Notes under the pieces: model-generated | The model's database searches: none | The model's input: only the letters and a program-made list of their open reading frames with translations | Told to the model about the DNA's origin: nothing | Part shown: one piece after another, positions 2,558-55,319 of the stretch | Layout of the letters: each line of letters opens with the position of its first letter | Position numbering within the stretch: position 1 is the first letter of the stretch | From: a phage | Assembly: GCA_012646185.1 (NCBI GenBank) | Contig: GCA_012646185.1_4706.1 | Reading direction: 5' to 3' (one strand) | Length of the DNA: 64,000 bases | Made by a program: the position numbers and the translations under genes

Positions 2558-2594
2558 CCTTCCTTCCCCGGCCTTGACGGCTAGGGAAGGAAGG
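2558..2594. terminator. bidirectional intrinsic terminator hairpin, family 1 (UUGAC loop)
   Basis: 16-bp stem ccttccttccccggcc/ggctagggaaggaagg with one mismatch; A-run upstream, T-rich run downstream; lies between convergent genes. Confidence 0.6.
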
Positions 2595-2606
2595 TTTATG
2601 GTTTAT

Positions 2607-3146
2607 TTACTGTTTGTTCGTGGCTTCACGAATGAAAATAACATCAGGATATTCTTGGGATTCAATGAATTCAGGATTACGATAACGACGAATGTGACGC
2701 ATTGTCGTACAAGCAAGTTTGTAAAGATGTTCCTCCTCACGTTGTGTTAATAACATCAGTTGCGCGTCTGGAATCACGAATGGGAGTCTTTCATTCACGT
2801 ATTCCCGAAGGTCATCGAGATCATCGTGATGAATGCCCTCTGAGAGCTTATATAACGCTTCCAGCAATTCTAATCCACCGAACTGGTAACTTCCTATTGT
2901 CGTCTTAAACAATGCGCCAGAACGCGTGGTGGATGCTCTATCGGCGACATCGTATTGTTCTAACATATATCCGTAGACCATGCTACGTCGATCCAGTGTA
3001 TCCGTAACGAGATTACGCCACCGTTCTAGTCTTTTGAGCGCTTTGTCGATAGAGTAAACGATCATGCCATGTTCATCCAACTCTTCCGCAATACCCAATA
3101 GTTCATTGTTGTTAGGTTTTGCTGCACCGATAAGAAAAACACTCAT
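2607..3146 (-). CDS. hypothetical protein
   Basis: 179-aa ORF; start overlaps the upstream stop as TAATG. Confidence 0.55.
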   Translation of the reverse strand: MSVFLIGAAKPNNNELLGIAEELDEHGMIVYSIDKALKRLERWRNLVTDTLDRRSMVYGYMLEQYDVADRASTTRSGALFKTTIGSYQFGGLELLEALYKLSEGIHHDDLDDLREYVNERLPFVIPDAQLMLLTQREEEHLYKLACTTMRHIRRYRNPEFIESQEYPDVIFIREATNKQ

Positions 3147-3559
3147 TACTCAAACTCCTTATTCCAAAACTCGATTAATGAATCGAGCTGTTCCTTACTG
3201 GTTATCTCACCTCCCCTAACAAAATGAAATCGTTCTTGAATGGCGATCTTTTCAAGGATATCGGTAAGCGAATGACGGTGACAGAAATTTCCTGCAGGAC
3301 AATAACACCCTAACACCACAACCGGATGGGAGAATAAAGCCAGCCACTCCGATGTATGATCAACAAAGCTTTTACGCATAAGCGTGTAGTAGCCTGCGGT
3401 ATATTCATCCTCGGTTAACGTTTTTGATTTGATTCCTGTAACAAGTTCCCATGAAGGTGCGAAGAGCGGGTTACCTGTTTTCACCGTCGTGTCCAGTAGG
3501 AACGCTCGTGTGTCTGAAAGCCAACGATATTTGGCTAATTGAAGGGTGTATAAAAACAC
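3146..3559 (-). CDS. hypothetical protein with CYCPAGNFCHRH Cys/His motif
   Basis: 137-aa ORF with a conserved-looking Cys/His cluster; family not verified. Confidence 0.5.
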   Translation of the reverse strand: MFLYTLQLAKYRWLSDTRAFLLDTTVKTGNPLFAPSWELVTGIKSKTLTEDEYTAGYYTLMRKSFVDHTSEWLALFSHPVVVLGCYCPAGNFCHRHSLTDILEKIAIQERFHFVRGGEITSKEQLDSLIEFWNKEFE

Positions 3560-3602
3560 AGCGCTAACCCCAAAGGATAAAAATAAAACCTTGACATAAC
3601 CA

Positions 3603-3632
3603 CCACCGTAGCCCCATACAGGGCTACGGTGG
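3603..3632 (-). terminator. intrinsic terminator hairpin
   Basis: Perfect 12-bp stem ccaccgtagccc/gggctacggtgg, loop cataca, U-rich tract on the minus strand, directly after the 3663..4142 gene. Confidence 0.55.
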
Positions 3633-3662
3633 GGTCATACAGAGAGACGTGTTAAGTTACAA

Positions 3663-4142
3663 TCAGTCTTTCAGCAGCTCAGCTGCATACGCACTGATGT
3701 TGTCGCGAATATGCTTAACCTGAGTTGTCGGGAAAGATTTCTTATACGCGGTAGTCAGGCGTCCGTAAACCTGTTTCTTCTCGTTAGAGCCGAAACCAAC
3801 TTCAGCGCTACGTTGAACCGTTGCAGACACAACGTCTTTGCCCAGCGGCAGGGTTACAGAAACAACGTCAACCTGTTTGTTATCCGCCATGAACTGCGCG
3901 CCAACGCGGCCAACCGCCAGACCGTGAGCCAGACCGATATCGGTGGTCAGTTTCTGTGCTTTTTCCAGGATTTCTTTTTCTTCCGGCGTTACCAGAGTAC
4001 CCAGGAAATCACTGCCTAACTTCTGGCTACCAGATTCGTCCAGTTTAATACCAGCGGCGATTTTATCAGAAAGAGCCTGAACTTCCGGACGTACGTTAGA
4101 AGTGGTTTCAGTCGCTACGGTGGTTTCTACAGCTTCAGACAT
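3663..4142 (-). CDS. hypothetical acidic protein, likely abundant
   Basis: 159-aa ORF, GGAG RBS, codon usage dominated by preferred codons, downstream of a CTATATTAC promoter motif. Confidence 0.6.
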   Translation of the reverse strand: MSEAVETTVATETTSNVRPEVQALSDKIAAGIKLDESGSQKLGSDFLGTLVTPEEKEILEKAQKLTTDIGLAHGLAVGRVGAQFMADNKQVDVVSVTLPLGKDVVSATVQRSAEVGFGSNEKKQVYGRLTTAYKKSFPTTQVKHIRDNISAYAAELLKD

Positions 4143-4259
4143 GTTAATACTCCAATTAGTTTTTTCGATCGATCAAAAGGATAAAATCAGAAGATTCTTT
4201 CTTCATAGGGAAAACACAAGTCGGTTAAGGTTTACTTCTTAAACTCCTTGCGTTCTATC

Positions 4260-4290
4260 AGTTAGGTAATATAGACCTCAACTTTTTTCC
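4260..4290 (-). promoter_or_regulatory. early-type promoter candidate (CTATATTACC motif)
   Basis: Minus strand reads AAAAAAGTTGAGGTCTATATTACCTAA; same motif at three other sites, all upstream of minus-strand genes. Confidence 0.5.
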
Positions 4291-5078: not shown

Positions 5079-5182
5079 CTTTTAAATTCCTACTTAACAA
5101 TAAAGTTCATATACGGCGTATGTATCCGTAGAATAATGAGTTCCGGTAAGATCTTACATCAAAATGACGGCATAAAAAGTAC

Positions 5183-5207
5183 CTCCTTACCCACATGGGT
5201 AAGGAGG
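5183..5207. terminator. hairpin, candidate terminator
   Basis: cctccttaccc acat gggtaaggagg; U-rich on the minus strand after it. Confidence 0.4.
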
Positions 5208-5359
5208 TTCGTCCATCACGACGAAAGGACGTTATGTGACGCGGTGTCCATAACGGCCCTGGTAGCAGGCATCAAAGATAACAAAAAGGATGTAAGTTGA
5301 GCTAAACCACCTAAATACGGTAACGATTACTTCCGTACACAATATAACGCAACATCTTT

Positions 5360-9500: not shown

Positions 9501-9524
9501 GGTACTGCGTTCAGCGAAATAAAC

Positions 9525-9550
9525 GAGCAGGGGCATGAAGCCCCCTGCTC
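9525..9550 (-). terminator. intrinsic terminator hairpin
   Basis: 9-bp stem gagcagggg/cccctgctc immediately after the stop of the 9551..13897 gene, followed by a U-rich tract on the minus strand. Confidence 0.5.
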
Positions 9551-12500
9551 TTATTTGGCGTCGTTAAAATAAATATCAACAGCTCGTTCCGTTGCGTAGA
9601 GGAGACCAAGATTCACAGTCCCAACCACTTCCGGTGAACCGATGATACGGTTAGCGATACTGGTGCCACTGAAGATAGCATCAAGGGTGTGCCCGTCTTC
9701 GGTTTTGTTCACACCATGACCCACGGAAGAGACAACGGATTTCGCTTGAGCTGCGAAGGTACCTTTATCACCCATCCCCGCACCAAGGTCGTAACGCATG
9801 AAAATACGGATAGCGATCTGGTTCTCGCCTAACGGATTACCGTCTATTCTCACGTTACTGTTATTGATACGCCCCGTAGTTGCTTCGTTGAGTTTCAGTT
9901 CCTTAACGCGTTTAGCTCGTGCTTTATCTGCCTCACCGACGAGCGCTGCCATGGTTTCACTCATATCCTCAATCTGAGCGCGGTACAGTACATCGATCTG
10001 TACAACTTCACCATGAACGTCAGCACGTGGGTTATACTGACTCATACGACGTAATGCTTCAACGGCTTCCTGACTCTCATCACTCAGATCGGTCGCAATC
10101 GGTTCTTCCAGTGTTGCAAGGATCGTTCGTGGTTCAACATGATCGCCGATTTTCACGAGACCACGAATGTTGAGATGGGCGTCAACGATGAGCGTACGGC
10201 TCTTAATCGATGGTGTTACGAGACGATCAGCAAGATTGTCGAAGATATACGAACTGTCCTCGTGAGTCTCTGGAATATCCAGAATACCGACAAGAGACAG
10301 AACACCTGCGCGCCAAACAACCTGACCTGGGTTCCACCAATCGCGTTTAAAATAAAGACGATGGAAAACCACCACATCCTGATCCTTAACGCGATCCCCG
10401 ACTTTATAATCGGTAATGAGATCGTGAGGATAATACTTACCTGGTCCTTTCCCGATTATCGTACCGAGCTGGAAAACCTCTTCCCCTAACTCTGGATCGT
10501 CGTATTGTATCGTAAGCGCAGTTTTGGTGACCTTCTTAACAACACCATCGCCTTGGGCAGCTGCTGCAAAGAGCTTACCAACACGATGCGCGATGACAGT
10601 CTCACCGCCTGTGCGCCATGGTTGTACATCGTAACCTTCAGCAGCAATCATGCGGTTGTGTTGGATCCCGACGAAGACCAGACGTTTTCCATCATCACGG
10701 TCTACAGCCGGAACAGCTAACGCTGACGTACTCATTACCGATGAGATGCCGTCTGTCTTTTCATCGAATGGTCGTGTTTCACCATACACCGACACGATAT
10801 TAGCATTAGGTGCAAGGTAAGCAGAGATACCCACATCCCCACTATCTTTCGTACCCTCTGACACAATACCAACATCGGACTTGTCGTATTCACGATCGCG
10901 TGCGCGTCGAAGCGATGTCTTTGAACGACCCCCGATACCGGTCATCGTTGCTTCTTCACCCTGCTTGATATCCAGCATCGGGTTGGTTTCATCGATCACG
11001 ATGGACGCGCTGTCGTCGAGAATTTGGTTCCAGACGCTTACCGGACTGATTGAGATTTTCTGACGATTTCCTTGACTGCTGTTCTCATTCTGACGAATAG
11101 CGCCAACCAGATCCTTATACACCAATTCAGCGAACTTATCGTACGTTTTAAAACGTTGATAGTTCACATCGTTGGTGTTAGGTGCCCAGTCATCCAGAAG
11201 CAGTTCAACAGCACGCAGTAACAACATGGCGAAATCGGTAGGTTCTCCCATGTTCTGTAGCAACGTACGGCTTACCGGATCAACGAAAAGACGCTCCATG
11301 AGTTCAAGTTCGCGTAAATGACGAACCTTAAGTCCGGCACCATCGACAACGTTAAAATAGATATCTCGATTGTCGAAAGCACCGCGAGCGTAACCGATGT
11401 AGTTACGGTACTCGTTAAATCCGCCCAGCAACAACGTCGTCATGCGATCGTCTTTACTGAAGATCAAACTTTCGTCATCAAAGCTCACCGCGAATTCATC
11501 GGGCGCTAGACCCATACGAGAACCGCGAGGTACCGTACGATAGTTCGCTTTAAGATGTTCTAATAACGGGGTAAGTCCACCCAGATAACTTAGAACAACA
11601 CCAACCGGAATACGTACACCCATGAATTCAAGATCGGCGGCTTCGATCGGCATCTTAGCCGCATTGATACCGAAGAAATCGGGGAACGTCCCTACAGGTG
11701 TTGGTGTTTGTCCTGACTGACAGATATAGAGCTGATTGCGTTTATCGATTGCTAAGAATTCACCCAGCGTGTTACGCGCAAACGTCAGGAGCCCTTCGGC
11801 TAACTGTTCGTTGAACCGATCTTCCCCGATGAACTCCGGCAATGTCTTTGTATCAAGACGTATATCCCAATCAGCAAATTGGATTTGGGTATAGTTGCGT
11901 GCAAGCACAGCGAAGTAATACGGGACTTTGACGGCCGGATCAAAGACGTTACCACGTTTTAACGTGGTTAAGGGCGAAGACTTATCGTAATACATCGCTG
12001 TAAGTTGGCGTGTTAGCCAACGACCGGCGTTATTAACGACACGCTCTGAACGTTTAACAAACACCTTACCGTAGGCGGTACTCAACGCAACTTCGGATGA
12101 TGATACCTTTCTAATAGGTTTATCAACACGTTGTTTACGCATCCGGTATTTGATGCCGTTAACAACATAAATGCCGTCCTTACGAACCTTCGGCAACATC
12201 ACCGGGAACGTGGTTGGGACACCGCCTACAGGAGCCAGTTTAATCGTGATGACTTGATAATCCCCCATCACGTCAACAACATCTTCAACTTTATATCCCG
12301 TGACAGGGTAACCTGCCTGTTGTACGGCAACAACAGCGGCTGCGATGTCCTTTTGCATCACGTGTTCAACGTAATGTTTATCCCACACCGCAAGCGTCGA
12401 TTTACATAGGCTCTTATCGACGATAACATCCGCTTCCGGCATAACCTTTGCTGGCGCTAATTTCGCGGCTTTTGGTTTAACTTCAACATACTCAGCAAGT

Positions 12501-43662: not shown

Positions 43663-43694
43663 CATCCTCCCTTCCCTTACGGGTTGGGAGGATG
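43663..43694. terminator. bidirectional terminator hairpin, family 2 (UUAC loop)
   Basis: catcctcccttccc ttac gggttgggaggatg; inner 20 nt identical to the hairpin at 26651-26682. Confidence 0.55.
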
Positions 43695-43711
43695 AAATAT
43701 GCCGTTAAACG

Positions 43712-44341
43712 TTATTCAACAAACCCTGCATTCAACAGATTGTCGTAAACACGATTAGCGACATCAACAGGAGAATGTGTGTTACTGGTGTCTATACACA
43801 ACGTTTTCGCATCGCCGAGATAGTCCATAAAATCCATGTAACGATAACGTCGTTTATTGAATGTCGCTTCATCGATGTTATCAAACATCTGATGTTTAGC
43901 GTGACGAACACGGAACCGTCTTAAATACGTAGGATAGTCAATATCCAGATAAACATAGTAAGACGGCATGATAATCGACGGTAGGTTCGGCAACAACGCG
44001 TCAAACAACTTAACGTTAGCGTCATTAACCTGGTAAACATACGTCGAAGCAATCGAACGATCGCTAAGCACAGTCTTCCCTTCGTTAAGGGCTGGATGAA
44101 TCACCTTGTTGAAGAGATGATTACGTTGCGACATCATCGCCAATAGTTCAGTTTCTGGATCGAATCTGTTTGTTGGTGTTTGGTCTTCCAGGATAAGTTT
44201 ACGAATGGCTTCTCCGTAGAGAGTACCACCGGGTTCACGTACAACACAAACATTGTTTAAACGACTGTGTAAAGACGAGATAACCGAACTCTTTCCTGAA
44301 TAATCCAGACCTTCAATAACGATATATTTATTACGAGACAT
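43712..44341 (-). CDS. tmk: thymidylate (dTMP) kinase
   Basis: Start reassigned to ATG at 44341 with GGAG RBS (track start is TTG). P-loop YIVIEGLDYSGKSS and REPGGTLYGEAIRKL match the thymidylate kinase signature. Confidence 0.7.
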   Translation of the reverse strand: MSRNKYIVIEGLDYSGKSSVISSLHSRLNNVCVVREPGGTLYGEAIRKLILEDQTPTNRFDPETELLAMMSQRNHLFNKVIHPALNEGKTVLSDRSIASTYVYQVNDANVKLFDALLPNLPSIIMPSYYVYLDIDYPTYLRRFRVRHAKHQMFDNIDEATFNKRRYRYMDFMDYLGDAKTLCIDTSNTHSPVDVANRVYDNLLNAGFVE

Positions 44342-44357
44342 TCCCCGCTCCAATTAA

Positions 44358-45536
44358 CTACTTCGTTTTCGCCGTTATCGGCTGCGATACTGTAATCTCG
44401 ACCCGATCGACATCGGTACGTTTAACGATGATAAGGCTGCGTTCATCACCGAATGGTTCTGAGATCTTACAAGCCTCTTTAAGATTTTCGAGAATCGTGC
44501 CATGGGGTTCAAACACCGCAAAACCGGAACTAGCGTCGATTTTTACTAAATATACACGCACATTGTTTACGGTAATGGTGTCATCCGTCTTGAACCCACA
44601 GCAGGAGGGTAGACAGAACTGGCCGGGAATACCGGCTACGTATGCCTCACCACCGAACATTTCTATTAACGTCACCGGTTTAAATGTTTTCTCTGGGAAA
44701 GCATTATTAAGGATATCGTTTCCATTCACAAACCAGATCGTCACTTTATCTTCAGAATACGCTAGTCGGTATGGTTGAGTTGCGGACGCTTGCGCTTTAT
44801 GCTGGTTAAATAATTTTGATTTTGTCGCAATCACAGCACGGCCTTGGGCGTCAAAGTACAGAACTTCATACCCAACACATCCGATAAACACGCGACGGTT
44901 ATTAAGTTCCGGAATTCTGACTAATAATGCTTCACCGTTGTATCCAGTAGGAACAATACCACGTAGGATGATAGATTCGTTATTCAATACTGAGTTGTCC
45001 ACGACGATGCTTCGCATTACCGCTGGGGTTACTGTTTTATCTGCGGTAGGTTCAGGTTGCTCAGCAATACGGTCAAAAGGTTCGATGGATACCATGGGAA
45101 CGAAGTATTCAACTATATGCTTGTTTTCAGCACCAACGTCCATGACGGTGATCTGCAAACGCGTAGCATCCGAATTCAATGCTTGTTTCACACGTTCTGC
45201 ATTAGGAGTATCACGGTCAATATGAATCAAGGCTTTTACCACACCGTCGTCTTCCAACCATCCCGTTAAAACGCGACCGACGATATCATTCACATCACGA
45301 ATCGGGAAGCACAGTTCAGCACCATCGAGCACCGCTTCGATTTTACTGCTAATGACGGGCACCTTACCGTCGTTAAGATGCGCCAGCAGACCGGTTACTG
45401 CACCTTCACTAACCGGATGTTTTGTCGTCGTACTGACCAACGGTACGATAAAACGATCTTCGCTGTATTTCTCTGCACCACAGATAACCGGGACTTGAGG
45501 ACAATAATCAACCAGCCCCCATTCAACAGTATTCAT
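44358..45536 (-). CDS. hypothetical protein
   Basis: 392-aa ORF. Confidence 0.55.
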   Translation of the reverse strand: MNTVEWGLVDYCPQVPVICGAEKYSEDRFIVPLVSTTTKHPVSEGAVTGLLAHLNDGKVPVISSKIEAVLDGAELCFPIRDVNDIVGRVLTGWLEDDGVVKALIHIDRDTPNAERVKQALNSDATRLQITVMDVGAENKHIVEYFVPMVSIEPFDRIAEQPEPTADKTVTPAVMRSIVVDNSVLNNESIILRGIVPTGYNGEALLVRIPELNNRRVFIGCVGYEVLYFDAQGRAVIATKSKLFNQHKAQASATQPYRLAYSEDKVTIWFVNGNDILNNAFPEKTFKPVTLIEMFGGEAYVAGIPGQFCLPSCCGFKTDDTITVNNVRVYLVKIDASSGFAVFEPHGTILENLKEACKISEPFGDERSLIIVKRTDVDRVEITVSQPITAKTK

Positions 45537-45568
45537 AACGTTTTCCTTCTTGGGTTTTGTACGTGTTG

Positions 45569-46183
45569 CTAACGGCGTTTCGTACCGACCTTCCCATTTC
45601 GATGGTCATCAAGAATACGCCATTCTTCGAACAGGAGTTCAGCAGCGAAATAACCTACAGCGATGCTGTCTATCGCATGCTCATCAAGATTCGCTAACAC
45701 AACACCATTCCTGGGTGTGATGTTCATGAGGTTCAATACTTTCTGGCGAACATCGTCCTTACCAACACGGGACGTCATGATCCCAACGGCGCGTTTTGCG
45801 CTTCGGTTATCAACCCCTAAGAAAGACACCGTAGGGTCAAAATCGATAACCGTTGTCTGAATCGCTGAAAACAGCTCGCTGAGCGCCATACCGCTTTGCT
45901 TGAAACGACCGATGAATGGCGTCTCACAAGCGACCGCTTGCGGCTGGTACTCTTGCAATAACGTTGTCAGCGAACGACGGTGTTCTTGGATACGTGCGGC
46001 ACGATTACCGTATCCAAGCGCAATATCGCCATCGGGATCATATCGACGTGAAGCGTGCCATGTCCCTGCATACAGCAGTTCAATATCTTCGACACGCACG
46101 TCCAAACGTAGTAACGACGCACCGAGTGTATCGGTGCCAGGGTCGATTGCCAGAATATCGTAAGCGTATTCTGGTGGGATCAT
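45569..46183 (-). CDS. RuvC-like Holliday junction resolvase candidate
   Basis: Start reassigned to ATG at 46183 (ATGA overlap with upstream stop); N-terminal YDILAIDPGTDTLGASLL resembles the RuvC catalytic ILGIDPG segment. Confidence 0.45.
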   Translation of the reverse strand: MIPPEYAYDILAIDPGTDTLGASLLRLDVRVEDIELLYAGTWHASRRYDPDGDIALGYGNRAARIQEHRRSLTTLLQEYQPQAVACETPFIGRFKQSGMALSELFSAIQTTVIDFDPTVSFLGVDNRSAKRAVGIMTSRVGKDDVRQKVLNLMNITPRNGVVLANLDEHAIDSIAVGYFAAELLFEEWRILDDHRNGKVGTKRR

Positions 46184-46995
46184 GGTGTTACAACAGCCTC
46201 TACTGACCATGGGAAGGTTTTCGCAATAACACCTTCCAGGAAGCGTTCAACTTCCGATTGCTCATACACCGAAAGCTTTTCAAACGGCGTTTGGTCTTCG
46301 GTTAAACCTACCGCATGAATAGGACCCAGGTCTTTAACCAGGGTAACTTCGCCTTTAACGCCTTCGCGCTTAACGATGATCGCGTGGTCATTAACCTTAG
46401 GATCGTACAGCACGCGCATCATGGTTACGGCGTCATCCGGTTCATGACCGAAATCGATGGCAACACGAGCATTCGTCCCTTCATCATCCAGAAGCTTGCT
46501 CAGCGCTTTACAACGGTCTTCAATCCAATCCAACGCAACCACGGTTTCTTGGCGTAGCTGAACCTCAACTTCTTTTCCTTGTTCGTCGATACGTTTCACG
46601 GTAACAAAATCGTGTAATAGGCGGTCAGGAAGGAGGGAAGCAATAAGCTCAACGTCGGGTTCAGGTTTTTCGTTTTCCAGAATGATAGTCGCTTGTGCGT
46701 CCAGATGTTCTTTAAAACGGATGTAACGTGTTAATCGCAGAACTTCATCTTGGGATTTTGCGTCTTCGGGAATAATCTCCGTCATGACGTTATAAATCTT
46801 TTCAGCGAACGTCGGAATTACGGTGATTGTAATTCGTGCTGGTGTACCACGCTCCTGGTACTCATCGGCTAACTTCTTCGCCATCCCGTTAAAATAAGTC
46901 TGGAGAAACGGTTGCTGCGTTAAAAACATTTTCTCCAGATCGGAATAGCGATGCTTGCGTGCATGGCCTAGCTTCTTCATGGGCTTTTTCATCAA
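46180..46995 (-). CDS. hypothetical protein
   Basis: 271-aa ORF between the Rad50-like and RuvC-like genes; no Mre11 phosphoesterase motifs seen. Confidence 0.55.
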   Translation of the reverse strand: MMKKPMKKLGHARKHRYSDLEKMFLTQQPFLQTYFNGMAKKLADEYQERGTPARITITVIPTFAEKIYNVMTEIIPEDAKSQDEVLRLTRYIRFKEHLDAQATIILENEKPEPDVELIASLLPDRLLHDFVTVKRIDEQGKEVEVQLRQETVVALDWIEDRCKALSKLLDDEGTNARVAIDFGHEPDDAVTMMRVLYDPKVNDHAIIVKREGVKGEVTLVKDLGPIHAVGLTEDQTPFEKLSVYEQSEVERFLEGVIAKTFPWSVEAVVTP

Positions 46996-47013
46996 CAGAA
47001 ATCCTTATTTGTC

Positions 47014-49470
47014 TTAAATAATCGTGACGTGTTCGTTATATGTTTCAGGGAGAATGATGTTCGTTTTATCAAGAACCATACACTCGGCTTTACGGAACGA
47101 CGCATGGTTGATAACATAGTGGCTGATGAACCACACCTGGCTTACGCGGTGACCATCAACCAAACGACGAACAAAATCCATGGCATTAGATTGGTGCTGT
47201 GGATCAAATGTTGATGCGAATTCGTCTAACATCAACGGATAATCCGTGAACCCTTTGTAATGCATCATCGCGATGATGAACGCGATATTGATAATTTCCT
47301 TTTGTCCCTTACTCCCATAAACAATATCTTTTCGCGGTGTCGGATACTTCTCAGTTAAAAGCGGAAAACGATAGTTCAATCCTTGCGCGTCGATAGCACA
47401 CGGGAGTATCTGAAGTTGGTATTCCCAAATACTTGCAATGATGCCGTTCATGTACTCAACGAACGCGTTGATGGGACCCGCGATTGTTTCGGCAATCAAT
47501 CCGTTAGATGGACTTAACTCATCCAGAACAAGTTGTGCGTAACTGAGCTGTTCTTCCACCTCTTTTTGTGTCGTTTCCAACTGAGCCAGAAGCTGCTGGT
47601 CGGTTTTAGCTTCCTGTAACTGCTGTTCGACATGACTTATTCGGCGAACCGTATCAGACATCGCAGCACGTAACGATTTCGTGTAGAGGTGTTGCAGATA
47701 CTCTAACCACAGTTGCGTTAACGCTTTATCGCTGTTATCAGAACGTACCTGATCTTCCATAATCGCCGTAATGGTTTCCAATCTACCTTCCGTGGCTGTG
47801 ATAGCTTGTGTTAACCGCTCAACGGTTGTTAACAACTCTGTCCTGTTCTTATAAAGCAATTCTCGACGTTGCTGTAACGGTTCAACATCAACCGCTTGTA
47901 CCCGTTCGAGCATACCTTGAAGATGCTTCCGTTCCTGTTCGGCTTGTGTGTAACGCGCGAGTTTCTCAAACGCAAGCAACCAGTCATTAATGATTCCAAT
48001 GCTGCGGAATCCTAAACCGTTTTTACGTCCTTCTTCCAGCAGATTGTCCCACATGGGTTTAATGGCGTAATAATCTTTCGTCCAACGTGTTAACTGACGA
48101 TGCTGTTCCATCCAGAGCGTATAGCGCTGAACCTTCTCACTAAGCTCGGTTAACGATTTCTCCTGTTCTTCAACCCAGGCACGGCCCTTCTGAATACGTT
48201 GTTCAATACCCGCTTTGCTGGTCTTTTCTGTCTCACCAACATGAAAGCGATAATTGCATTTTGGACAGCTGGTCTGGGGTTGATGATTCAGGTGGTCAAG
48301 ATGCGCTTCCAAATCGGCTAACGCATGTTTCGCGTTACGCAAACGCATTCTTGCCGCCTCTTCCTCCTTGATGTAAGCTTCAGCATCGTAAACATGATAG
48401 GTGTTGTCGGTATCAATCCATTCTTGCAGTAATTCCGTTAACGGAGCCTGAACTTGCGTGAGCTGTTGTAAACAAACCGCAGCGTCCAGATTCATTGTTA
48501 AAAGCTCACCTGGATGATCTTGCTGAAGTTGTTCGTCTAAACGTGCAATGCGGGCTTTAATTTGATCGATATCACCTTCGCCAGACTGTTTCAACTGGTC
48601 AAGGATATTATCGATACCCAACAGCTCGTCAACCTGACTTTCGAGTTTTGCATTCGCATTCGCGAGTTGCTCTCTTAGTTCAGCCAGATTCTGCTGTTCT
48701 TGTTGCGATGTTCCTCCTTGGTAACGAACAACCGCACGAAGAAGCTCACGATTAAAATGATGGGCGCGTTGTGCGGATTCCAGAAGCTGTCGTTGATCAA
48801 CATCGCTATCGAATAACGGCAATCCCATCATCGCTTCGAGCGCTGAGCGTTGCTGTTTTAACTCTGCTTCCAATCCCTGGTGGTCGGTGCCGGTGTATTT
48901 CGCTTCGATGCGCTGTGATGTTTCAACCAACTTATTCAGTGTATGCTCATTCACCGCTTTCAGTGAACGTACTTGTTGCTTAACCACCTGAAACAACTCG
49001 AGTGCGTAATCGACGTTAACCGGACATATCTGCGTTAATCGTTCGCGACGTTTCATCGGTCCCATTTCGGTGAACTGGTAAGCCGTTTCGTAACCTAACA
49101 ACAAACGAATAGTGTCATCATTAAGTTCGAAATGTTCTTCGATCAGTTTCCACTGAGCGGGTTGTGTGCCACCACCATTCAGGTTCTCGCTGTCGTTAAC
49201 GTAGAACTCATGCTTAAACCCTTTTTCTAAACGACTGATAAGACGGTATTGCTTATTACGGTGTTCGCAGCGGTACTCGTAATACCCGTCTTTATCAAAA
49301 TCGGCACGCTCAGGAACGGTCGGATACAGCAAAGGCAATAGACTACTCTTACCCGAACCGTTGCTGCCTAAAATGAGTTGTACGGGATTATCTGGCCGGA
49401 TGACCAGCTCCCGAATCATCCCGGTATCAAAACGATTGAATCCACGTAAGTGGAGATAGGTGCATCGCAT
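47014..49470 (-). CDS. Rad50/SbcC-like ATPase
   Basis: Start reassigned to ATG at 49470. Walker A LILGSNGSGKSS, long central coiled-coil with CPKC zinc-hook-like motif, C-terminal LMLDEFASTFD plus SHY. Confidence 0.7.
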   Translation of the reverse strand: MRCTYLHLRGFNRFDTGMIRELVIRPDNPVQLILGSNGSGKSSLLPLLYPTVPERADFDKDGYYEYRCEHRNKQYRLISRLEKGFKHEFYVNDSENLNGGGTQPAQWKLIEEHFELNDDTIRLLLGYETAYQFTEMGPMKRRERLTQICPVNVDYALELFQVVKQQVRSLKAVNEHTLNKLVETSQRIEAKYTGTDHQGLEAELKQQRSALEAMMGLPLFDSDVDQRQLLESAQRAHHFNRELLRAVVRYQGGTSQQEQQNLAELREQLANANAKLESQVDELLGIDNILDQLKQSGEGDIDQIKARIARLDEQLQQDHPGELLTMNLDAAVCLQQLTQVQAPLTELLQEWIDTDNTYHVYDAEAYIKEEEAARMRLRNAKHALADLEAHLDHLNHQPQTSCPKCNYRFHVGETEKTSKAGIEQRIQKGRAWVEEQEKSLTELSEKVQRYTLWMEQHRQLTRWTKDYYAIKPMWDNLLEEGRKNGLGFRSIGIINDWLLAFEKLARYTQAEQERKHLQGMLERVQAVDVEPLQQRRELLYKNRTELLTTVERLTQAITATEGRLETITAIMEDQVRSDNSDKALTQLWLEYLQHLYTKSLRAAMSDTVRRISHVEQQLQEAKTDQQLLAQLETTQKEVEEQLSYAQLVLDELSPSNGLIAETIAGPINAFVEYMNGIIASIWEYQLQILPCAIDAQGLNYRFPLLTEKYPTPRKDIVYGSKGQKEIINIAFIIAMMHYKGFTDYPLMLDEFASTFDPQHQSNAMDFVRRLVDGHRVSQVWFISHYVINHASFRKAECMVLDKTNIILPETYNEHVTII

Positions 49471-49584
49471 GCTATGATAATCCTTCTTCGATACCTTCTG
49501 AACCACGGGTTCAGAATGCGAAGCTGAAGCCATACTTCAGCGTTATTTTCTATATCGTTATTTAAATCAGTAGGAGATTACAGC

Positions 49585-50673
49585 ATGAGCGACCTGGCAA
49601 CAGACAATCGCACAAAAGGGAGTCAGCTAGCTCCAGACAACAACGTAAGCGTTTTCCGTATCTATGCCTTGGGTACTGTTGCTGCCGACTTTTCCAATAA
49701 AAGTCTGGAGGAAGATCCTAACCAGGCGCTGGAGGTCTTTCTTGATGAGATGATGTCAGGCGCTGATGGGAAAGTTGAAGCGGCGGGAAGCGTGAAAGAA
49801 GTCAGTGCAACAGACGCTCAAGGGAACAGCTATACGGCGAAAGCGGCAACAACAACCAGCGTACAGTGTTATTGGTTACCTTTCGGTAGTAACCGGATGA
49901 CAGCACCTAACTTGAGGAAAGGTCAACGTGTGGTGGTCTGGCGTACCGCCGATGAAGAACAACTCTACTGGCAGCCCAAAGGAGGGGATAGTGAGCTGAT
50001 GACCATGGAATCGGTTATCCTCACCGTCAGCGCACGTCCTAGCGCTAAGAAGGACCGTAAATCGATTTCAACGGAAGACTGCTATTACCTAATGGTTGAT
50101 ACCTTCCTCAAGAAAGCGGTTATCGGTACAAGCGCACAGCTTGGTGAAGTTACCCAAGTCTACATGGAACTTAATCTGGACGAGGGTTACCTACAGGTTG
50201 CGGACAGCGTCCATCAAAATCTGTTGTTACTCCATTTTGTCGAGCATATGCTGCGTTATCAAAATCAGGATGACAGCATCATCGACGTGACAAAAAAGAA
50301 CATCACATTCCAATGCGAGGATACGCTCAAAGCAATCGCTAAGAACGATATCCGAATGAAAGCAAAAAATATTTATACCGAATGTGAGAACTTTGAACGT
50401 ACCAGCAAAACAGAAAGCGTTACGAGTCAGAATGTTTCTTTGAAGTGTGATCGTTACACCGCGCAAGTATCAGGACAGACCACGTTTAAATGTCCGAATA
50501 CGGTATTCACTGGAGCTGTAAGCTTCACAGGTGAAGACGGAAACACGATGACGTTGAATGGAAACTTCATACACATCGCAGGCTCTTGGCGTTCACCAAC
50601 CGGAACAAACGTATACACCCACGATCACGGCGGTGTAGATCGTGGTAGCGGTCGCACAGACCCGTTCCAATAA
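49585..50673 (+). CDS. hypothetical protein
   Basis: 362-aa ORF, ATG with AGGAG RBS. Confidence 0.6.
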   Translation: MSDLATDNRTKGSQLAPDNNVSVFRIYALGTVAADFSNKSLEEDPNQALEVFLDEMMSGADGKVEAAGSVKEVSATDAQGNSYTAKAATTTSVQCYWLPFGSNRMTAPNLRKGQRVVVWRTADEEQLYWQPKGGDSELMTMESVILTVSARPSAKKDRKSISTEDCYYLMVDTFLKKAVIGTSAQLGEVTQVYMELNLDEGYLQVADSVHQNLLLLHFVEHMLRYQNQDDSIIDVTKKNITFQCEDTLKAIAKNDIRMKAKNIYTECENFERTSKTESVTSQNVSLKCDRYTAQVSGQTTFKCPNTVFTGAVSFTGEDGNTMTLNGNFIHIAGSWRSPTGTNVYTHDHGGVDRGSGRTDPFQ

Positions 50674-50699
50674 ACAAAAGAAAAAGAAATGCTATATAA

Positions 50700-50735
50700 C
50701 CTCCTTCCCTAGCCGTCAAGGCCGGGGAAGGAGGA
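50700..50735. terminator. bidirectional terminator hairpin, family 1 (loop inverted relative to 2558-2594)
   Basis: cctccttccctagcc gtcaa ggccggggaaggagg; inner 21 nt is the exact reverse complement of the inner part of the 2558 hairpin while flanks keep the same orientation. Confidence 0.55.
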
Positions 50736-50749
50736 TTATAGTTTATTTA

Positions 50750-51139
50750 TTAACGCGTTGCATTCTGGATGATTTCTTTTCCGATCTTAACCAAAGCGGG
50801 TATCTGTACAGCGGTTGCGCCTCGATGACGAAACGCGGTCGTTAACGCGGTATCGATACTCACCGCACGTCCGTGAAGACGATCGAAATAGACTTGAGTG
50901 ATTGCGGTAGCGTAATCCTTTCGCTGTTTCTTGGTTTGGCTCAACAGCACCGCACTATGACTAACGATGAAGTAAGCGATTAAGAAGAACGCTGCTGACC
51001 GCGAACCGGGTAGAAAACCTTGTCGCTTAGGGAGCATCTCACAATCGCGAACACTATTATCGTTCGCAAGATCTTCCATATCAACACAGCATAATTTTGC
51101 ATAGGTGTGGAGATAGTGGGTAAAAGTTGAATTTAACAT
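50750..51139 (-). CDS. hypothetical small protein
   Basis: 129-aa ORF, last in a run of small minus-strand genes. Confidence 0.5.
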   Translation of the reverse strand: MLNSTFTHYLHTYAKLCCVDMEDLANDNSVRDCEMLPKRQGFLPGSRSAAFFLIAYFIVSHSAVLLSQTKKQRKDYATAITQVYFDRLHGRAVSIDTALTTAFRHRGATAVQIPALVKIGKEIIQNATR

Positions 51140-51244
51140 TTTCTTTCCTCGATTACAATGAGTTCAATGTATAGCTTAAACGTCACAGAACGACGTATAA
51201 CAGTTTGTTTTAATTTCTAAGGGGTTTCCCTATCTAAGATTGAT

Positions 51245-51607
51245 TTAAAGCGTTCTGAAGAGTTCTGTCGCGTTCTCGTCACGTAAACAGGCTTCGTTCA
51301 ACAATTCAGCTAACAGCTTCGACCGAACTTCAACAAATGTCCTGAGGCGATGCTCCCATTCTAAACGGATGGTGTACGTATTATCCAGGTTTTTGTAATC
51401 AACGACAGATGTAGAACAACGGGCTTCGCGTTTGTTCACGGCACCCCAAACATCACGGATAACCGTCACGCCTTTCTTGGTGCATGTAAACGTTAAAATA
51501 AAGCGATTATTCGCAGCTTCTTCACGGACGCCAACAAATTCACTTCGTAACGATGAGACTTTGATCAGTCGGTCAATAGCTAACGATAAACCGATACGTT
51601 GTTGCAT
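51245..51607 (-). CDS. hypothetical small protein
   Basis: 120-aa ORF. Confidence 0.5.
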   Translation of the reverse strand: MQQRIGLSLAIDRLIKVSSLRSEFVGVREEAANNRFILTFTCTKKGVTVIRDVWGAVNKREARCSTSVVDYKNLDNTYTIRLEWEHRLRTFVEVRSKLLAELLNEACLRDENATELFRTL

Positions 51608-51608
51608 A

Positions 51609-52034
51609 TCAAATCCCCTCTTTCAGAATCTCATTAAGACCGTCAGTAATCCAGTCGAACTTCGTCTTAATCATGGCTGGGTTCAATCCATATACTTCCC
51701 ACACAAGCTGGGGTTTATGTGTTCCATCGTCCAAACAAAGCACATCGATTGAGAGTACCATACCACCCGTCAATTTCATGTTCTCGCAACTACGAAGATA
51801 TGCGGATTCTAGCAATACTTTCCCTAACGCAGTGCAAGCAAATGTTAACCGGGAAGAGTACAGGTACGATGACGTTTTACAGTAGGTTGCTGATATCGGT
51901 TGAATATGTTTGCGGAGTTTGGCGTCTTCACGTAAAAGCAATAACGTGTGATGTAACCGCGTATGCTCGGTAACCGATGAGCTATACTCACCGATACACT
52001 CTTCGGCGACTGATTTAGGCCATTTAATTTTCAT
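51609..52034 (-). CDS. hypothetical small protein, paralogue of 52050..52493
   Basis: N-terminus MKIKWPKSVAEE resembles MEIKFCKSIAIV of the adjacent gene. Confidence 0.5.
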   Translation of the reverse strand: MKIKWPKSVAEECIGEYSSSVTEHTRLHHTLLLLREDAKLRKHIQPISATYCKTSSYLYSSRLTFACTALGKVLLESAYLRSCENMKLTGGMVLSIDVLCLDDGTHKPQLVWEVYGLNPAMIKTKFDWITDGLNEILKEGI

Positions 52035-52049
52035 GTTCGATTCCTCGTA

Positions 52050-52493
52050 TTAACACTGTGTTCCATTCGATAAGCGGGTGGTATCAAAACGATCCAGTTG
52101 GTGTACAATGCTATCAGCAACACGATGCAAATAGTGTATTTTGTCCATTCGTGAAATCGCAGAAATCGTCCAGCAAGCCTCTGACGTCCAATAGGTGCCG
52201 TCTTCACTAAGGCTAACGTTATAAACTAACTTCGTCATCACATTTCTCGCCTTATGCTCAGCAGACCAGAATATGTTTTCTAACACATCCTTCCCCGTTT
52301 GTGAAAACACGAACCCAAGCTTCACGTCGAAGTCGGATGCTTCAAGATTAACGCAGTGAAGATGATTCTCTAACGGCGCAAAAGAGGCTAAACGTTCCAG
52401 CGCATGTTGCAGTGTGGGATGATCGAGCTTTTCGAGATCGTCCACAGGTTGTTCAGGTACAATCGCGATCGATTTACAGAATTTAATTTCCAT
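52050..52493 (-). CDS. hypothetical small protein, paralogue of 51609..52034
   Basis: 147-aa ORF; see neighbouring paralogue. Confidence 0.5.
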   Translation of the reverse strand: MEIKFCKSIAIVPEQPVDDLEKLDHPTLQHALERLASFAPLENHLHCVNLEASDFDVKLGFVFSQTGKDVLENIFWSAEHKARNVMTKLVYNVSLSEDGTYWTSEACWTISAISRMDKIHYLHRVADSIVHQLDRFDTTRLSNGTQC

Positions 52494-52605
52494 GGTAGGT
52501 TCCTCTTGATAGTGGTTGATGATAGTAACGGGGACGGCGATGTCCCCTTGGTTTCTTATTGCCCCGCCCGAACCCGATGGGGTACAGGCGGGTGATGTTG
52601 ATGCG

Positions 52606-53013
52606 TTATAGCGGCATCAGACGTTCTTTAAGTTGGGTTAACTTATTTGCAACGATGTTCTCAACGTCGATCATCTTGTTCATGTTGTCGAGGGTATCCT
52701 GCCAGATGAAAATATCCACGGAACCGGTTCCGACTAACGCGTTCTCAGGACGATGGTCACGGGTCACGTAGCGTGGTCTCTGCGGGCAGGTTTGTAACTC
52801 GATCCAAAGCGCATCTAACGGACCGTGGTCCGTGACACCTAAGGCGAAGAATTCACCTCGTACGACCAGAACATCATCAGCCGTCCTGACACGGGTTGAT
52901 CCTTCGTACACCAATTCCATCTTTGCTCGACAGGCTGGGTTCTCGTTCCACGCCTGGACGGCATCGGCAAGGGCTATTGACGTTGCGGTGGTGTTCGTTT
53001 GATCATGTTGCAT
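52606..53013 (-). CDS. hypothetical small protein
   Basis: 135-aa ORF. Confidence 0.5.
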   Translation of the reverse strand: MQHDQTNTTATSIALADAVQAWNENPACRAKMELVYEGSTRVRTADDVLVVRGEFFALGVTDHGPLDALWIELQTCPQRPRYVTRDHRPENALVGTGSVDIFIWQDTLDNMNKMIDVENIVANKLTQLKERLMPL

Positions 53014-53091
53014 TCTAAGCTCCTCAATCGTTCTACAACGAACTTTTAATGGAAGGGAATATGTTTCCCTTCCTTGGGTTAGGTTATTGCG

Positions 53092-53367
53092 TTACACGGC
53101 TTTACAGCTTGCGTAAACCACAACTGTTCCGTTGTTGATTGCTTCAACCACATCCCGGGTTAACACAACGGCGTTATCGCTTCGAGACGACGGTGCGTAA
53201 TACCCTTCACCGTTCTCGGTAATCAGGCGATAACGGACTAAGCCTATGCTCGGTTCAACACGTAGCACCTTCTCAAGTTTGTATTTGATGATCTTCGTCA
53301 GGCTGACTGTGTCTGACGCGTAGATTGCTTTATAAACCTTGTTCTTTGCTGTCGGTTTCATCAACAT
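53092..53367 (-). CDS. hypothetical small protein
   Basis: 91-aa ORF. Confidence 0.45.
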   Translation of the reverse strand: MLMKPTAKNKVYKAIYASDTVSLTKIIKYKLEKVLRVEPSIGLVRYRLITENGEGYYAPSSRSDNAVVLTRDVVEAINNGTVVVYASCKAV

Positions 53368-53407
53368 GATTTCTGTTGTATTTTCCTTTTCGCTTGTTGG
53401 TGTTGGA

Positions 53408-53707
53408 TTAAGGTTTAGGTTCCGTTTTGTATTGTGCGAGTAATGTGTTGATCTGCTCCCGTTGTTCTTTTAAGTATGCGGGAAGCTGGTCTTCCCGTAC
53501 CGTTCCGATTTCCAACGTGATGTACCAGCGTTGTTCGGAAGCCTGCCATTGAAAACTGCTCTGTAGCCGTAGGATGCTAGGATCACGTACCTTGCTTGCA
53601 CTGTAGTGATCGAACCAATCCAGGTATTCTGCTTTCCCTTCCTCATCGGCAACGTAACGCTGCACGCTGTTCTTCCCTTTGTTTTCGTATCCCGTTGCAC
53701 GTATCAT
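53408..53707 (-). CDS. hypothetical small protein
   Basis: Start reassigned to ATG at 53707, forming an ATGA overlap with the upstream stop. Confidence 0.45.
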   Translation of the reverse strand: MIRATGYENKGKNSVQRYVADEEGKAEYLDWFDHYSASKVRDPSILRLQSSFQWQASEQRWYITLEIGTVREDQLPAYLKEQREQINTLLAQYKTEPKP

Positions 53708-54486
53708 GCGAACGTTTCTCCTGTAATGTGTTGCGGATGGCGTAGCATGGTAGCATCCCATTGTACGATCCGGCTCCGGCTTACCAGCATCATGACGGAT
53801 TCATCGTCAAGCCCTGGCTGCGCAACCGGCAACCAACGTTCGTTAAGCACCTTCGCTTCAACACGTTTCTTGCGGGGATTGTAGCGCACTTCGCTAACCC
53901 AAGCGAATCCAAGTGGATGCACAACCCGTGGATAATACATGCGAAGCAATTGATGCATCCGATCCGTTGCCTCCAGATTGCAATCCACCATGTAAGGTTT
54001 CACCATGGTAAGCTTTTTGGTGTAATACGTTCCAACGGTATGGTTACGCCAACTTGGCAAGGCATGATCCCCTTCTCTCAGTTTGCTATCCGAGTTCATC
54101 GGCCAGACCTGCTGTTTACCGGCCAGCATCGCGTACTGCCGATCAACGCAACGAACCTGATCGGCGAACAATGGATCCAGAACATCATCCACCGCACCCT
54201 TATTGCGATAACCGTGATGTACCACCAACCTGCTTGCGCTCATCGATGCGGGATGCTGGCTCTTATGCGCATACAGCCCACCGTCACCGCGAGGGTCGTA
54301 AAGATAGCCGCATGCGCCACGCCATATCACCTTGCCTACGGTTCTCTCGTTTTCAAGCAGCATCGTCGGCCCATCAAGCAAATTGGTGAACCACTGCACC
54401 TTCACGCATTCCGCTTGGACATGCTCAGGTAATGCCTGATACTCTTTTTGGGTGTATAAGGTATCAAAAATGATTTCATCGTTCAT
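53704..54486 (-). CDS. hypothetical protein
   Basis: 260-aa ORF with GAGGAA RBS; first gene after the promoter motif at 54577. Confidence 0.55.
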   Translation of the reverse strand: MNDEIIFDTLYTQKEYQALPEHVQAECVKVQWFTNLLDGPTMLLENERTVGKVIWRGACGYLYDPRGDGGLYAHKSQHPASMSASRLVVHHGYRNKGAVDDVLDPLFADQVRCVDRQYAMLAGKQQVWPMNSDSKLREGDHALPSWRNHTVGTYYTKKLTMVKPYMVDCNLEATDRMHQLLRMYYPRVVHPLGFAWVSEVRYNPRKKRVEAKVLNERWLPVAQPGLDDESVMMLVSRSRIVQWDATMLRHPQHITGETFA

Positions 54487-54569
54487 TTAAAAAGTTCCTC
54501 TGTTTTTCACGTTAATTAAACAACGTATTGATTTCTATTTGACGCAATACGAACATTGTACGTATGCAT

Positions 54570-54610
54570 CACTAAGGTAATATAGTCGTGAAAGGATTTG
54601 TGTTACAGAA
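54570..54610 (-). promoter_or_regulatory. early-type promoter candidate (CTATATTACC motif)
   Basis: Minus strand reads AATCCTTTCACGACTATATTACCTTAG. Confidence 0.5.
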
Positions 54611-54901
54611 AGGGTTTTGTTGTGTTTTAAGAAGGGATGGATTTAGAAGAGGTGTTTCATGGAAGGTAAACGAGGATAGGTATTTTGATTTAAGTAAGTA
54701 AGATGTTATCTGTATTCGTTAAAAGTGTATTGTTTATCTTAGGTTATGTCTTATTGTTTAATCGTTTAATATTTTTATCTAAGTAGGTTTAACTCTATCT
54801 TGTTTGTATATTTAAATTAAATCAATAAGCTTATCTTCAAAACAATGGATAACATGTGTTTACTACCTTAACGGTAACACATGTCATCTGTGCATTACAC
54901 T

Positions 54902-55110
54902 CCGTTATCACTTCGTTACATGCTTATAAGTTGGATAACTCAAAAAAACATTTGTGATACTCTTCTTCACGTTGTTCATCAGAGTATCTCGTCTATACTC
55001 ATTGCATTCGTATACGACATAACCGTTATACGCTAACGCTACGCTTATAGCTTGATAACTCTAAGGATAAAAACATAAACTCGCTTCGCTCGTTTAGTTT
55101 TTCTTTTTCT
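54902..55110. repeat. imperfect ~45-bp direct repeat pair plus a 12-bp inverted repeat in an AT-rich non-coding region
   Basis: ccgttat...gcttataRSttgGataactc at 54902-54940 and 55023-55066; gataactctaag at 55055-55066 and its reverse complement cttagagttatc at 55099-55110. Confidence 0.5.
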
Positions 55111-55287
55111 TAGAGTTATCCTGTTGCTCGTCTCTAAAGGACTTCGCTCCTCCCCCGTCCCCCGAAGGGGCCGGAGTCGTGGAAATTTTACTTTCCAAAT
55201 ACATTTACAACATCTGTAAACTTTTACTCCAGGTACTTAATCTTATCATTAGAAATTATAAAGAGAAGAATAAACACAAACATAAAC

Positions 55288-55319
55288 CTTCCTCCAACCC
55301 AACAGGGAAGGAGGAAGGG
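55288..55319. terminator. terminator hairpin, family 2 variant (inverted copy of the 39513 element)
   Basis: ccttcctcc aacccaacagggaa ggaggaagg; loop is the reverse complement of the 39522-39535 loop, stems differ by compensatory changes. Confidence 0.5.

Follow-up and report, generated by a model that had tools for sequence, protein, structure and literature searches.

The 64,000-nt stretch of phage DNA analyzed here (the window; GenBank assembly GCA_012646185.1, contig GCA_012646185.1_4706.1) carries, at the ends of genes, a class of long hairpins whose 5' arm is built of pyrimidines (Y) and whose 3' arm is built of purines (R). A preliminary description made from the sequence pointed out six of them, at 2558 and 50700 (family 1) and at 26651, 39513, 43663 and 55288 (family 2; the last is listed below as 55287), and all six are found where it placed them, with the arms that it described. 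The window is 96.3-96.5% identical to Escherichia phage vB_EcoM_Goslar over most of its length and 93.4% identical over the last 9.6 kb; in Goslar coordinates it runs from ~197,676 across the arbitrary ends of the GenBank record to ~24,493. Judged by this similarity, it comes from a Goslar-like nucleus-forming jumbo phage of the genus Goslarvirus, a chimallivirus (the family is named Chimalliviridae in the papers cited below). The matching region of Goslar encodes subunits of the phage RNA polymerase (a β subunit included), virion proteins, and many proteins of unknown function. A group I intron on the minus strand at 14144-14530 (Rfam RF00028, 56.3 bits) adjoins the RNA polymerase subunit genes; it is also annotated in Goslar, whose record lists another at 169269-169645. 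This intron is the sole match in the window to the Rfam 15 covariance models at gathering score, and none matches at the hairpins; a tRNA scan found no tRNA in the window and none at the hairpins.

The hairpins are far too frequent to be chance products of low-complexity sequence. When a Y/R hairpin is defined as a pure-pyrimidine 5' arm of at least 7 bp that is exactly complementary to a pure-purine 3' arm, the window contains eight, against one of opposite polarity, and dinucleotide-preserving shuffles of the window yield a mean of 0.08 (maximum 1). The full Goslar genome was assembled from the public record and the hairpin analysis repeated on it as a whole: 41 pyrimidine-loop-purine hairpins are present, against 6 of opposite polarity. 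RNA folding, which had been proposed as a check, gave free energies (ΔG) of -24.5 to -32.2 kcal/mol for the six hairpins first reported and of -22 to -32 kcal/mol for the class, the z-scores ranging from -4.7 to -6.6; 200 shuffles yielded no fold of equal stability, and stability is about equal on either strand. The hairpins are all intergenic, that is, outside real genes, and start 7-29 nt from stop codons, and thus the placement at gene ends was correctly recognized. The same is true of the claim that most lie between convergent genes: five of the six are flanked by convergent open reading frames (ORFs), the exception being 55287, which has a minus-strand gene on each side. Moreover, the class is larger than six. 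Further Y/R hairpins lie at 5181-5208, 34876-34911 and 57109-57146, and hairpins of mixed sequence at 3599, 27796 and 43020 carry the same downstream motif as the Y/R class. The putative terminator annotations of the Goslar record cover several hairpins of the class, including one of the six and approx. 7 of the 41 Y/R hairpins genome-wide.

The hairpins of the window are listed below (ΔG in kcal/mol; paired values as computed for the two strands; matrix, score against the weight matrix described further on; "Goslar terminator", annotated as such in the Goslar record; L009 and L013, two further Goslarvirus contigs).

2553-2602, both strands: candidate family-1 bidirectional terminator, hairpin 2558-2594, CCTTCCTTCCCC-GGCC-TTGAC-GGCT-A-GGGAAGGAAGG; TTTATG after the stem on the plus strand, AATATG on the minus strand; between convergent ORFs 1641-2531 (+) and 2607-3146 (-); ΔG -30.4/-32.2, z -5.0/-6.2; core inverted relative to Goslar.
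3593-3640, minus strand: mixed-sequence hairpin (3599), CCCCACCGTAGCCC / GGGCTACGGTGGTGG, then TTATGTC; downstream of ORF 3663-4142 (-); loop of 6 nt, inverted in Goslar.
5165-5208, minus strand: Y/R hairpin with stem 5181-5208, ACCTCCTTACCC-ATGT-GGGTAAGGAGGT, then ACTTTTTATGCCGT; between two minus-strand genes; ΔG -22.8, z -5.3, matrix 9.3; loop inverted in Goslar.
9524-9550, minus strand: hairpin of opposite composition, GAGCAGGGGGC...GCCCCTGCTC, then GTTTATTTCGC; Goslar terminator.
26643-26689, both strands: candidate family-2 bidirectional terminator (26651), outer stem CCCTCTCCC/GGGAGAGGG, 2x2 U-U internal loop, inner CCC-UUAC-GGG hairpin; ATTATG on plus, TTTATGCAG on minus; between convergent ORFs 24490-26634 (+) and 26689-27807 (-); ΔG -30.1/-29.8, z -6.6/-5.6; core inverted in Goslar.
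27786-27821, minus strand: mixed-sequence hairpin (27796), GCCTACCCAC/GTGGGTAGGC, then TTTATGCCGT; matrix 13.2.
34873-34914, not assigned to one strand: Y-rich/R-rich hairpin (34876), CCCACCCTACTACCC/GGGCGGTAGGGTGGG, between convergent ORFs; TTATTATG after the stem on minus, TTTATTTGCCGT on plus; Goslar terminator.
39507-39553, not assigned to one strand: candidate family-2 terminator (39513), CCCTCCTCC-UU-CCC-UGUU-GGG-UU-GGAGGAGGG; TTATGCCGT on plus, AATATG on minus; 7 nt past the stop codon of ORF 38874-39506 (+); ΔG -29.3, z -6.2.
39575-39607, minus strand: candidate conventional terminator adjoining 39513, a mixed-sequence hairpin with an 11-T run, downstream of ORF 39615-40316 (-); loop inverted in L009.
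41340-41379, minus strand: perfect 12-bp hairpin, CAAGGTCCTCTG-ATAT-CAGAGGACCTTG, then CTTTATATCGTTTTTT; matrix 14.0; Goslar terminator.
43020-43055, plus strand: hairpin, GAGCCTGTCC-TTCG-GGGCAGGCTT, then TTATGCTGT; matrix 12.4; Goslar terminator.
43653-43706, both strands: candidate family-2 bidirectional terminator (43663), CATCCTCCC-UU-CCC-UUAC-GGG-UU-GGGAGGATG; AAATATGCCGT on plus, GTTTTTATGCGC on minus; between convergent ORFs 43257-43658 (+) and 43712-44353 (-); ΔG -24.5, z -5.5; core inverted in Goslar and L013 but not in L009.
50695-50740, both strands: candidate family-1 bidirectional terminator (50700), core the reverse complement of the 2558 core; ATTATAG on plus, TTATATAG on minus; ΔG -30.7, z -5.9; Goslar terminator at 11186-11220, the only one among the six.
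55275-55318, minus strand: candidate family-2 unidirectional terminator (55287), CCTTCCTCC-UU-CCC-UGUU-GGG-UU-GGAGGAAGG, then TTTATGTTTG; 17 nt past the stop codon of ORF 55335-56228 (-); the plus side, which is not transcribed, lacks the motif; ΔG -24.5, z -5.1.
57109-57146, not assigned to one strand: Y/R hairpin, CCCCTCCTCATCCG-TTAT-TGGGTGAGGAGGGG; Goslar terminator; ΔG -27.2, z -4.7; inner stem with paired changes relative to Goslar and L013; downstream motif weak on the minus strand.

Copies within a family are not uniformly oriented. The UUGAC and GUCAA loops ascribed to family 1 are one sequence read on two strands, because 2558 and 50700 have opposite orientations; within family 2, 39513 and 55287 are likewise opposed. 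The UUAC loop attributed to the whole of family 2 holds for 26651 and 43663 only, as 39513 and, on the minus strand, 55287 have UGUU, and at 55287 the U-U mismatches ascribed to that family are A-A when read on the plus strand. The sole clear hairpin of opposite polarity in the window, GGAAGGGAA-TATGT-TTCCCTTCC at 53049-53075, has the purine arm first and lies between two minus-strand genes. In the record of Goslar itself, a stretch of 55 nt is duplicated at the two ends (1-55 and 237253-237307), and the record start falls inside the 39513 hairpin. The A-run beside the same hairpin (39520-39569 region) is 11 nt long in the window and 17 nt long in Goslar.

The stem is followed within 0-9 nt by a second conserved part, the box (T)TTATG(C/T)(C/T)GT, which occurs on the strand along which a gene leads into the hairpin. 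It reads, for instance, TTATGCCGT at 39513, AAATATGCCGT at 43663 and, on the minus strand, TTTATGTTTG at 55287 and TTTTTATGCCGT at 5181. At convergent sites, CATAA upstream and TTATG downstream make the whole unit a palindrome of ~50 nt. In Goslar, TATG stands at the 3' edge of the stem in 44 of the 85 strong hairpin-strands met by an ORF, and in 30 of 42 when the pyrimidine-arm class is taken separately, compared with a background of 5-9% and with 10 of 68 hairpins viewed from the untranscribed strand; the Goslar consensus of the region is GGTTTATGCTGT. The preliminary description had held that the elements exceed what simple terminators need. They do go beyond a generic hairpin, but the additional feature is this box, which it had missed, and not the loops.

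A terminator class of this kind has already been described in phages phiKZ and 201phi2-1, of which the longer, nested stems of the window are probably the Goslarvirus version. In phiKZ, ONT-cappable-seq revealed that a single motif, 5'-BCCYCCCCHWWDGGGRRGGBYTTATKYYGT-3', in which TTAT comes after a stem-loop, is common to more than 70% of the predicted intrinsic terminators; it covers 61 terminator regions that coincide with mapped RNA 3' ends, and includes bidirectional sites between convergent genes (Putzeys et al. 2024, PMC10914365). The 201phi2-1 study (PMC11512511) reports that the commonest terminator motif of that phage (motif A, n=59) strongly resembles the phiKZ motif, that a second motif (B) lengthens the hairpin, that 15 sites are bidirectional, and that eight terminators were active in vivo in a reporter (terminator-trap) assay that relied on the host polymerase of uninfected cells. 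In 50 kb of phiKZ DNA, we found 11 Y-loop-R hairpins and no R-loop-Y hairpin, typically of the form GCCCTCCC-ATTAC-GGGAGGGC-TTATGCTGT with the box TTATG(Y)(Y)GT, and with CATAA upstream at convergent sites. When the hairpin tails of the window were scored with a weight matrix made from 33 such phiKZ sites, 19 of the 22 transcribed sides exceeded the 95th percentile of random window positions, and 11 of these exceeded the 99th; among the untranscribed sides, only one of eight passed. The published degenerate consensus, searched as an exact string, has no match in the window, in Goslar, or in the 50 kb of phiKZ itself, and is too strict for this use. An automatic covariance model built from 31 phiKZ sites captured just 3 base pairs, as unequal stems were misaligned, and was dropped.

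The window elements share with those of phiKZ a 5' arm of C and U only (CCYCCCC), a 3' arm of G and A only (GGGRRGG), and TTAT plus K-Y-Y-G-T after the stem, as well as the position after genes and the bidirectional use at convergent genes; moreover, phiKZ belongs to the same family and has its own multisubunit RNA polymerases. They differ in that their outer stems have 9-16 bp, whereas phiKZ stems have 6-9 bp with a loop of 4-6 nt, in that U-U or A-A mismatches separate the outer stem of many window copies from an additional inner hairpin, and in the spacer before TATG, which ranges from 0 to 9 nt in the window; furthermore, 3' ends have been mapped in phiKZ, whereas the window class is known from its sequence. 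The commonest Goslarvirus sub-family is nested, in that its outer Y/R stem is joined through a 2x2 U-U internal loop (A-A on the other strand) to an inner CCC-tetraloop-GGG hairpin, which recalls the entire hairpin of phiKZ. The elongation by motif B of 201phi2-1 parallels the long window stems, a comparison made by description and not by motif sequence. As in canonical Rho-independent terminators, a G+C-rich hairpin soon past the stop codon is followed by T-rich sequence, and the mechanism is presumably similar; in contrast to them, the Y/R stems lack a run of at least five U residues, the arms are strictly polarized, and an ATG-Y-Y-GT box is conserved.

By analogy with the mapped phages, the hairpins are quite probably factor-independent (intrinsic) terminators, the Goslarvirus members of the class known from phiKZ and 201phi2-1. 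Structure, statistics, polarity and position past stop codons are direct observations, as are the box on the transcribed strand and the agreement with phiKZ sites; beyond them, we infer that RNA 3' ends form at these hairpins, that the enzymes stopped are the phage-encoded RNA polymerases and that the leftover hairpin shields the 3' end of the mRNA. Each element comprises two parts. The first is a very stable RNA hairpin with a CCUCC-like 5' arm of C and U only and a GGAGG-like 3' arm of G and A only, and the second the box (U)UUAUG(C/U)(C/U)GU, located 0-9 nt past the stem, which would take the place of the long bacterial U-tract. As the pyrimidine arm and then the purine arm emerge in the nascent transcript, the hairpin would form, and the polymerase, resting on the weak UUAU hybrid of the box, would release the RNA; the released hairpin, with few unpaired nucleotides at its 3' end, would afterwards protect the message. 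Because a pyrimidine-loop-purine palindrome keeps its polarity on both strands, the same element could serve both converging genes, and five of the six reported sites have this arrangement, a single ~50-nt palindrome with CATAA ahead of the stem and TTATG behind it that would stop both converging transcripts.

Several observations weigh against this interpretation. The RNA 3' ends at the window sites are placed by analogy with phiKZ and 201phi2-1, and exonucleases that trim RNA back to a stable hairpin can likewise produce the 3' ends that are mapped there. The 33 phiKZ sites behind the weight matrix had been chosen for TTAT or TATG, so the core of the matrix is circular and only its flanking columns are independent. 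The box is not uniform: TATA replaces TATG on both sides of 50700, and the minus-strand box of 57109 is poor. The Y/R hairpins have no canonical U-tract, their tails being TTTATG, ATTATG or AAATATG, and a standard terminator scan misses all of them: applied to 39000-58000, a rule that calls for a G+C-rich hairpin with a U-tract (at least 5 T in 8) beginning 0-2 nt past it picks out 41352 and none of the Y/R hairpins, while the neighboring hairpin at 39575 fits the rule with its 11-T run. Finally, the first 50 kb of SPN3US, a Salmonella chimallivirus, lack the motif and show no polarity (4 against 3), having ordinary terminators of a hairpin plus a T-run. Because this sequence has no pyrimidine-first bias, the phiKZ/Goslar-type signal appears to be lineage-restricted within the family and not a family-wide rule.

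Trimming deserves consideration as an explanation in its own right. The hairpins might be stabilizers of 3' ends, or processing stops, with transcription continuing past them and exonucleases cutting back to a structure that then protects the mRNA. Stems of -22 to -32 kcal/mol far exceed what termination needs, the U-tract is absent, and 3'-end mapping alone cannot tell termination from trimming. However, a conserved, strand-specific box past the stem would be cut away in such a process and is sensible only if it is read by the polymerase or in DNA, and in the terminator-trap assays on 201phi2-1 (PMC11512511), downstream expression was lost. We therefore regard trimming as unlikely.

The box also raises a possibility that is compatible with termination, namely, that it is an element recognized by the polymerase, either as a polymerase-specific pause that lets the hairpin act or as a point of restart resembling a terminator-promoter cassette. 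The late promoter of phiKZ is TATG, with the start at G, and is necessary for transcription by the non-virion polymerase (PMC4666361); the β-lobe of the core subunit GP123, and not a sigma-like subunit, recognizes it on the non-template strand (PMC12809450). Because TATG is bound by a core subunit, its recognition could persist during elongation. Moreover, the box is strand-specific, is common to phiKZ and Goslarvirus despite genomes without DNA similarity, and occurs also at convergent sites, where no co-oriented gene follows. On the other hand, promoters must be present in the divergent intergenic regions of the window, yet these contain no consistent TATG, for which reason TATG was also rejected as a general promoter of this phage. 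The eight 201phi2-1 terminators work with the host polymerase in uninfected cells, so phage-specific recognition is not required, and four annotated Goslar genes take their start codon from the box, a codon that would be missing from any transcript begun at the G. Recognition of the box by the polymerase, for pausing or for initiation, thus seems doubtful, if conceivable. The same low likelihood attaches to its most specific form, a sequence-gated terminator in which a hairpin is combined with a core-recognized pause box read by the β-lobe of the non-virion RNA polymerase. If this were true, transcription in the phage nucleus, uncoupled from ribosomes, would ignore chance intragenic hairpins and stop only at marked sites, and such a terminator could also permit immediate restart at the same point. 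As the box is present in phiKZ and Goslarvirus and apparently absent in SPN3US, its distribution can be compared with the sequences of the polymerase β-lobe.

Dispersed stem-loops next to a promoter are reportedly also found in T4-type phages, in which the PeSL cassettes ascribed to Comeau et al. (2014) are said to combine a stem-loop with a sigma-70-type early promoter at the borders of gene cassettes. The window elements resemble them as a dispersed, conserved family of intergenic stem-loops beside a short promoter-like box; they differ in that no sigma-70-type promoter adjoins the hairpins, and sites of this type are not enriched (25, compared with 31.7 +/- 5.9 expected).

Since the 3' arm and the box resemble a ribosome-binding site followed by ATG, the hairpins might instead act as translational operators, a GGAGG arm and an ATG being locked in the structure to regulate the next gene or a small ORF. 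At most sites GGAGG indeed lies 3-9 nt ahead of ATG, at 27796 in the window the ATG is in frame with the next ORF, and for the Goslar genes gp047, gp111 (methyltransferase), gp167 and gp183 the start codon given in the record (49770-49772, 117664-117666, 152270-152272, 166922-166924) coincides with the ATG of the box, the purine arm being the apparent Shine-Dalgarno sequence. Such starts reflect either genuine double use of the box or an artefact of gene calling; two of the genes are short, gp047 with 62 and gp167 with 31 codons. At the six reported sites, however, the ATG opens frames of only 2-22 codons, apart from one of 50 codons that runs antisense through a real gene, and most sites face a converging gene. 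In addition, the corresponding position of the phiKZ motif is G or T (PMC10914365), so that ATG is not obligatory, and an RNA ending at UUAU would hold no AUG. Such a role is therefore most unlikely.

The preliminary description had taken compensatory changes in the stems and constancy of the loops as evidence for selection on both, and had suggested testing whether the loops bind a phage protein. The first observation is correct. Among 15 distinct family-2 copies, seven of the nine outer-stem pairs change on both sides and 96% of cells are paired; none of 500 shuffles reaches the observed covariation score, and sliding the partners abolishes the signal. The loops, in contrast, are not maintained. 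When orthologous sites were compared among the window, Goslar, L009 and L013 (genomes 93-97% identical), the loop or whole core was found to be the exact reverse complement between orthologues, with flanks unchanged, at 7 of 18 hairpin sites, i.e., at 2558, 3599, 5181, 17653, 26651, 39575 and 43663, which include both Y/R and mixed-sequence hairpins; further inversions occur elsewhere in the compared genomes. At 52563, an imperfect arm has become perfect, the 5' arm in L013 matching the 3' arm exactly.

Replication template switching at inverted repeats is known to produce loop inversion, homogenization of arms, and stem changes that arise already compensated (PMC8794818, PMC8604942). The hairpins show all of these features, with loops reverse-complemented between close relatives, arms perfected, and multi-base changes that are compensated from the outset, which points to template-switch mutation as the source of the inversions. 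Template switching is a mutational process and not a functional class, and thus it would account for how the hairpins change, not for their role. Because it yields ready-compensated changes, the covariation alone, although real, is no proof of selection on RNA pairing.

The inversions also bear on the proposed loop-binding protein. Identical cores do recur at many loci (CCC-UUAC-GGG with U-U pairs and GGCC-UUGAC-GGCU), as recognition by a phage protein would have it. Inversion affects even the unidirectional hairpins 3599 and 5181, however, so the loop as read in RNA is not constant, which argues against such a protein. The loops of 39513 orthologues vary (UGUU, UGAU, AUUAC), and at several loci the similarity of loops between copies accompanies identity over ~50 nt, including the flanks, which indicates copying or shared descent. 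Moreover, one studied RNA-binding protein of these phages has no motif preference and bound near start codons. Recognition of the loops by a protein is thus extremely improbable, and the claim of selection on loop sequence is not borne out.

Copying of ~50-nt units, flanks included, to several loci might alternatively mean that the palindromes are DNA-level elements, i.e., points of recombination or module exchange or small mobile repeats, with any role in RNA being secondary. Frequent inversion and arm homogenization fit such elements, as does a difference between related genomes: in an uncultivated relative (L011, 3443-3943), an extra 151-codon gene ends in its own family-2 hairpin, where Goslar (86751-86798) has only a different Y/R hairpin. 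This appears from the sequences to be the insertion or deletion of a gene-plus-terminator cassette, a behavior that also speaks for the terminator interpretation, being expected of such a cassette. The exact 18-mer of the family-2 core is found in Goslar and two related uncultivated genomes, along with three short unrelated matches in viral collections, and the sub-family is genus-specific. Strict Y-then-R polarity and a box oriented with transcription are, however, traits of RNA or transcription and not of a symmetric DNA site; placement is always just past stop codons, and no terminal repeats, target duplications or associated transposase were seen. A primarily DNA-level function is very unlikely. 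Triplex DNA (H-DNA) was rejected by inspection, since the arms form an inverted and not a mirror repeat and the purine/pyrimidine runs extend over only 9-16 nt.

Two further regions of the window are of note. Between 55287 and the next minus-strand gene, ~800 nt of A+T-rich sequence (54487-55286) contain no ORF longer than 51 codons and are unannotated in Goslar. Repeated units resembling GAGTTATC(C/A)A.CTTATAAGC occur in this stretch, together with several inverted repeats and, at 55150-55180, a C-rich hairpin; it could be a non-coding RNA or a regulatory region. At 56313-56921, long ORFs overlap on opposite strands, 56313-56912 (+) and 56376-56921 (-). In the RefSeq entry of Goslar, the matching gene is called on the plus strand, yet its coordinates agree with the ORF on the minus strand; it may be worth verifying on which strand this virion-protein gene lies.

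The loop inversions provide a clear example of template-switch mutation shaping RNA hairpins, and call for caution in taking covariation within palindromes as proof of selection. Together with the link between the TATG box and the promoter, these flip-flop inversions are the parts most worth pursuing. In practical terms, the elements are likely to be strong, insulated and compact bidirectional terminators for synthetic biology in E. coli. A rule of a hairpin plus TTATG would allow transcription units to be drawn in a widely used model of nucleus-forming phages of E. coli and, because the motif resembles a ribosome-binding site followed by ATG, would flag probable gene-calling artefacts. Finally, the presence of the same signal in genera without DNA similarity suggests that it is a conserved termination signal tied to the phage polymerases.

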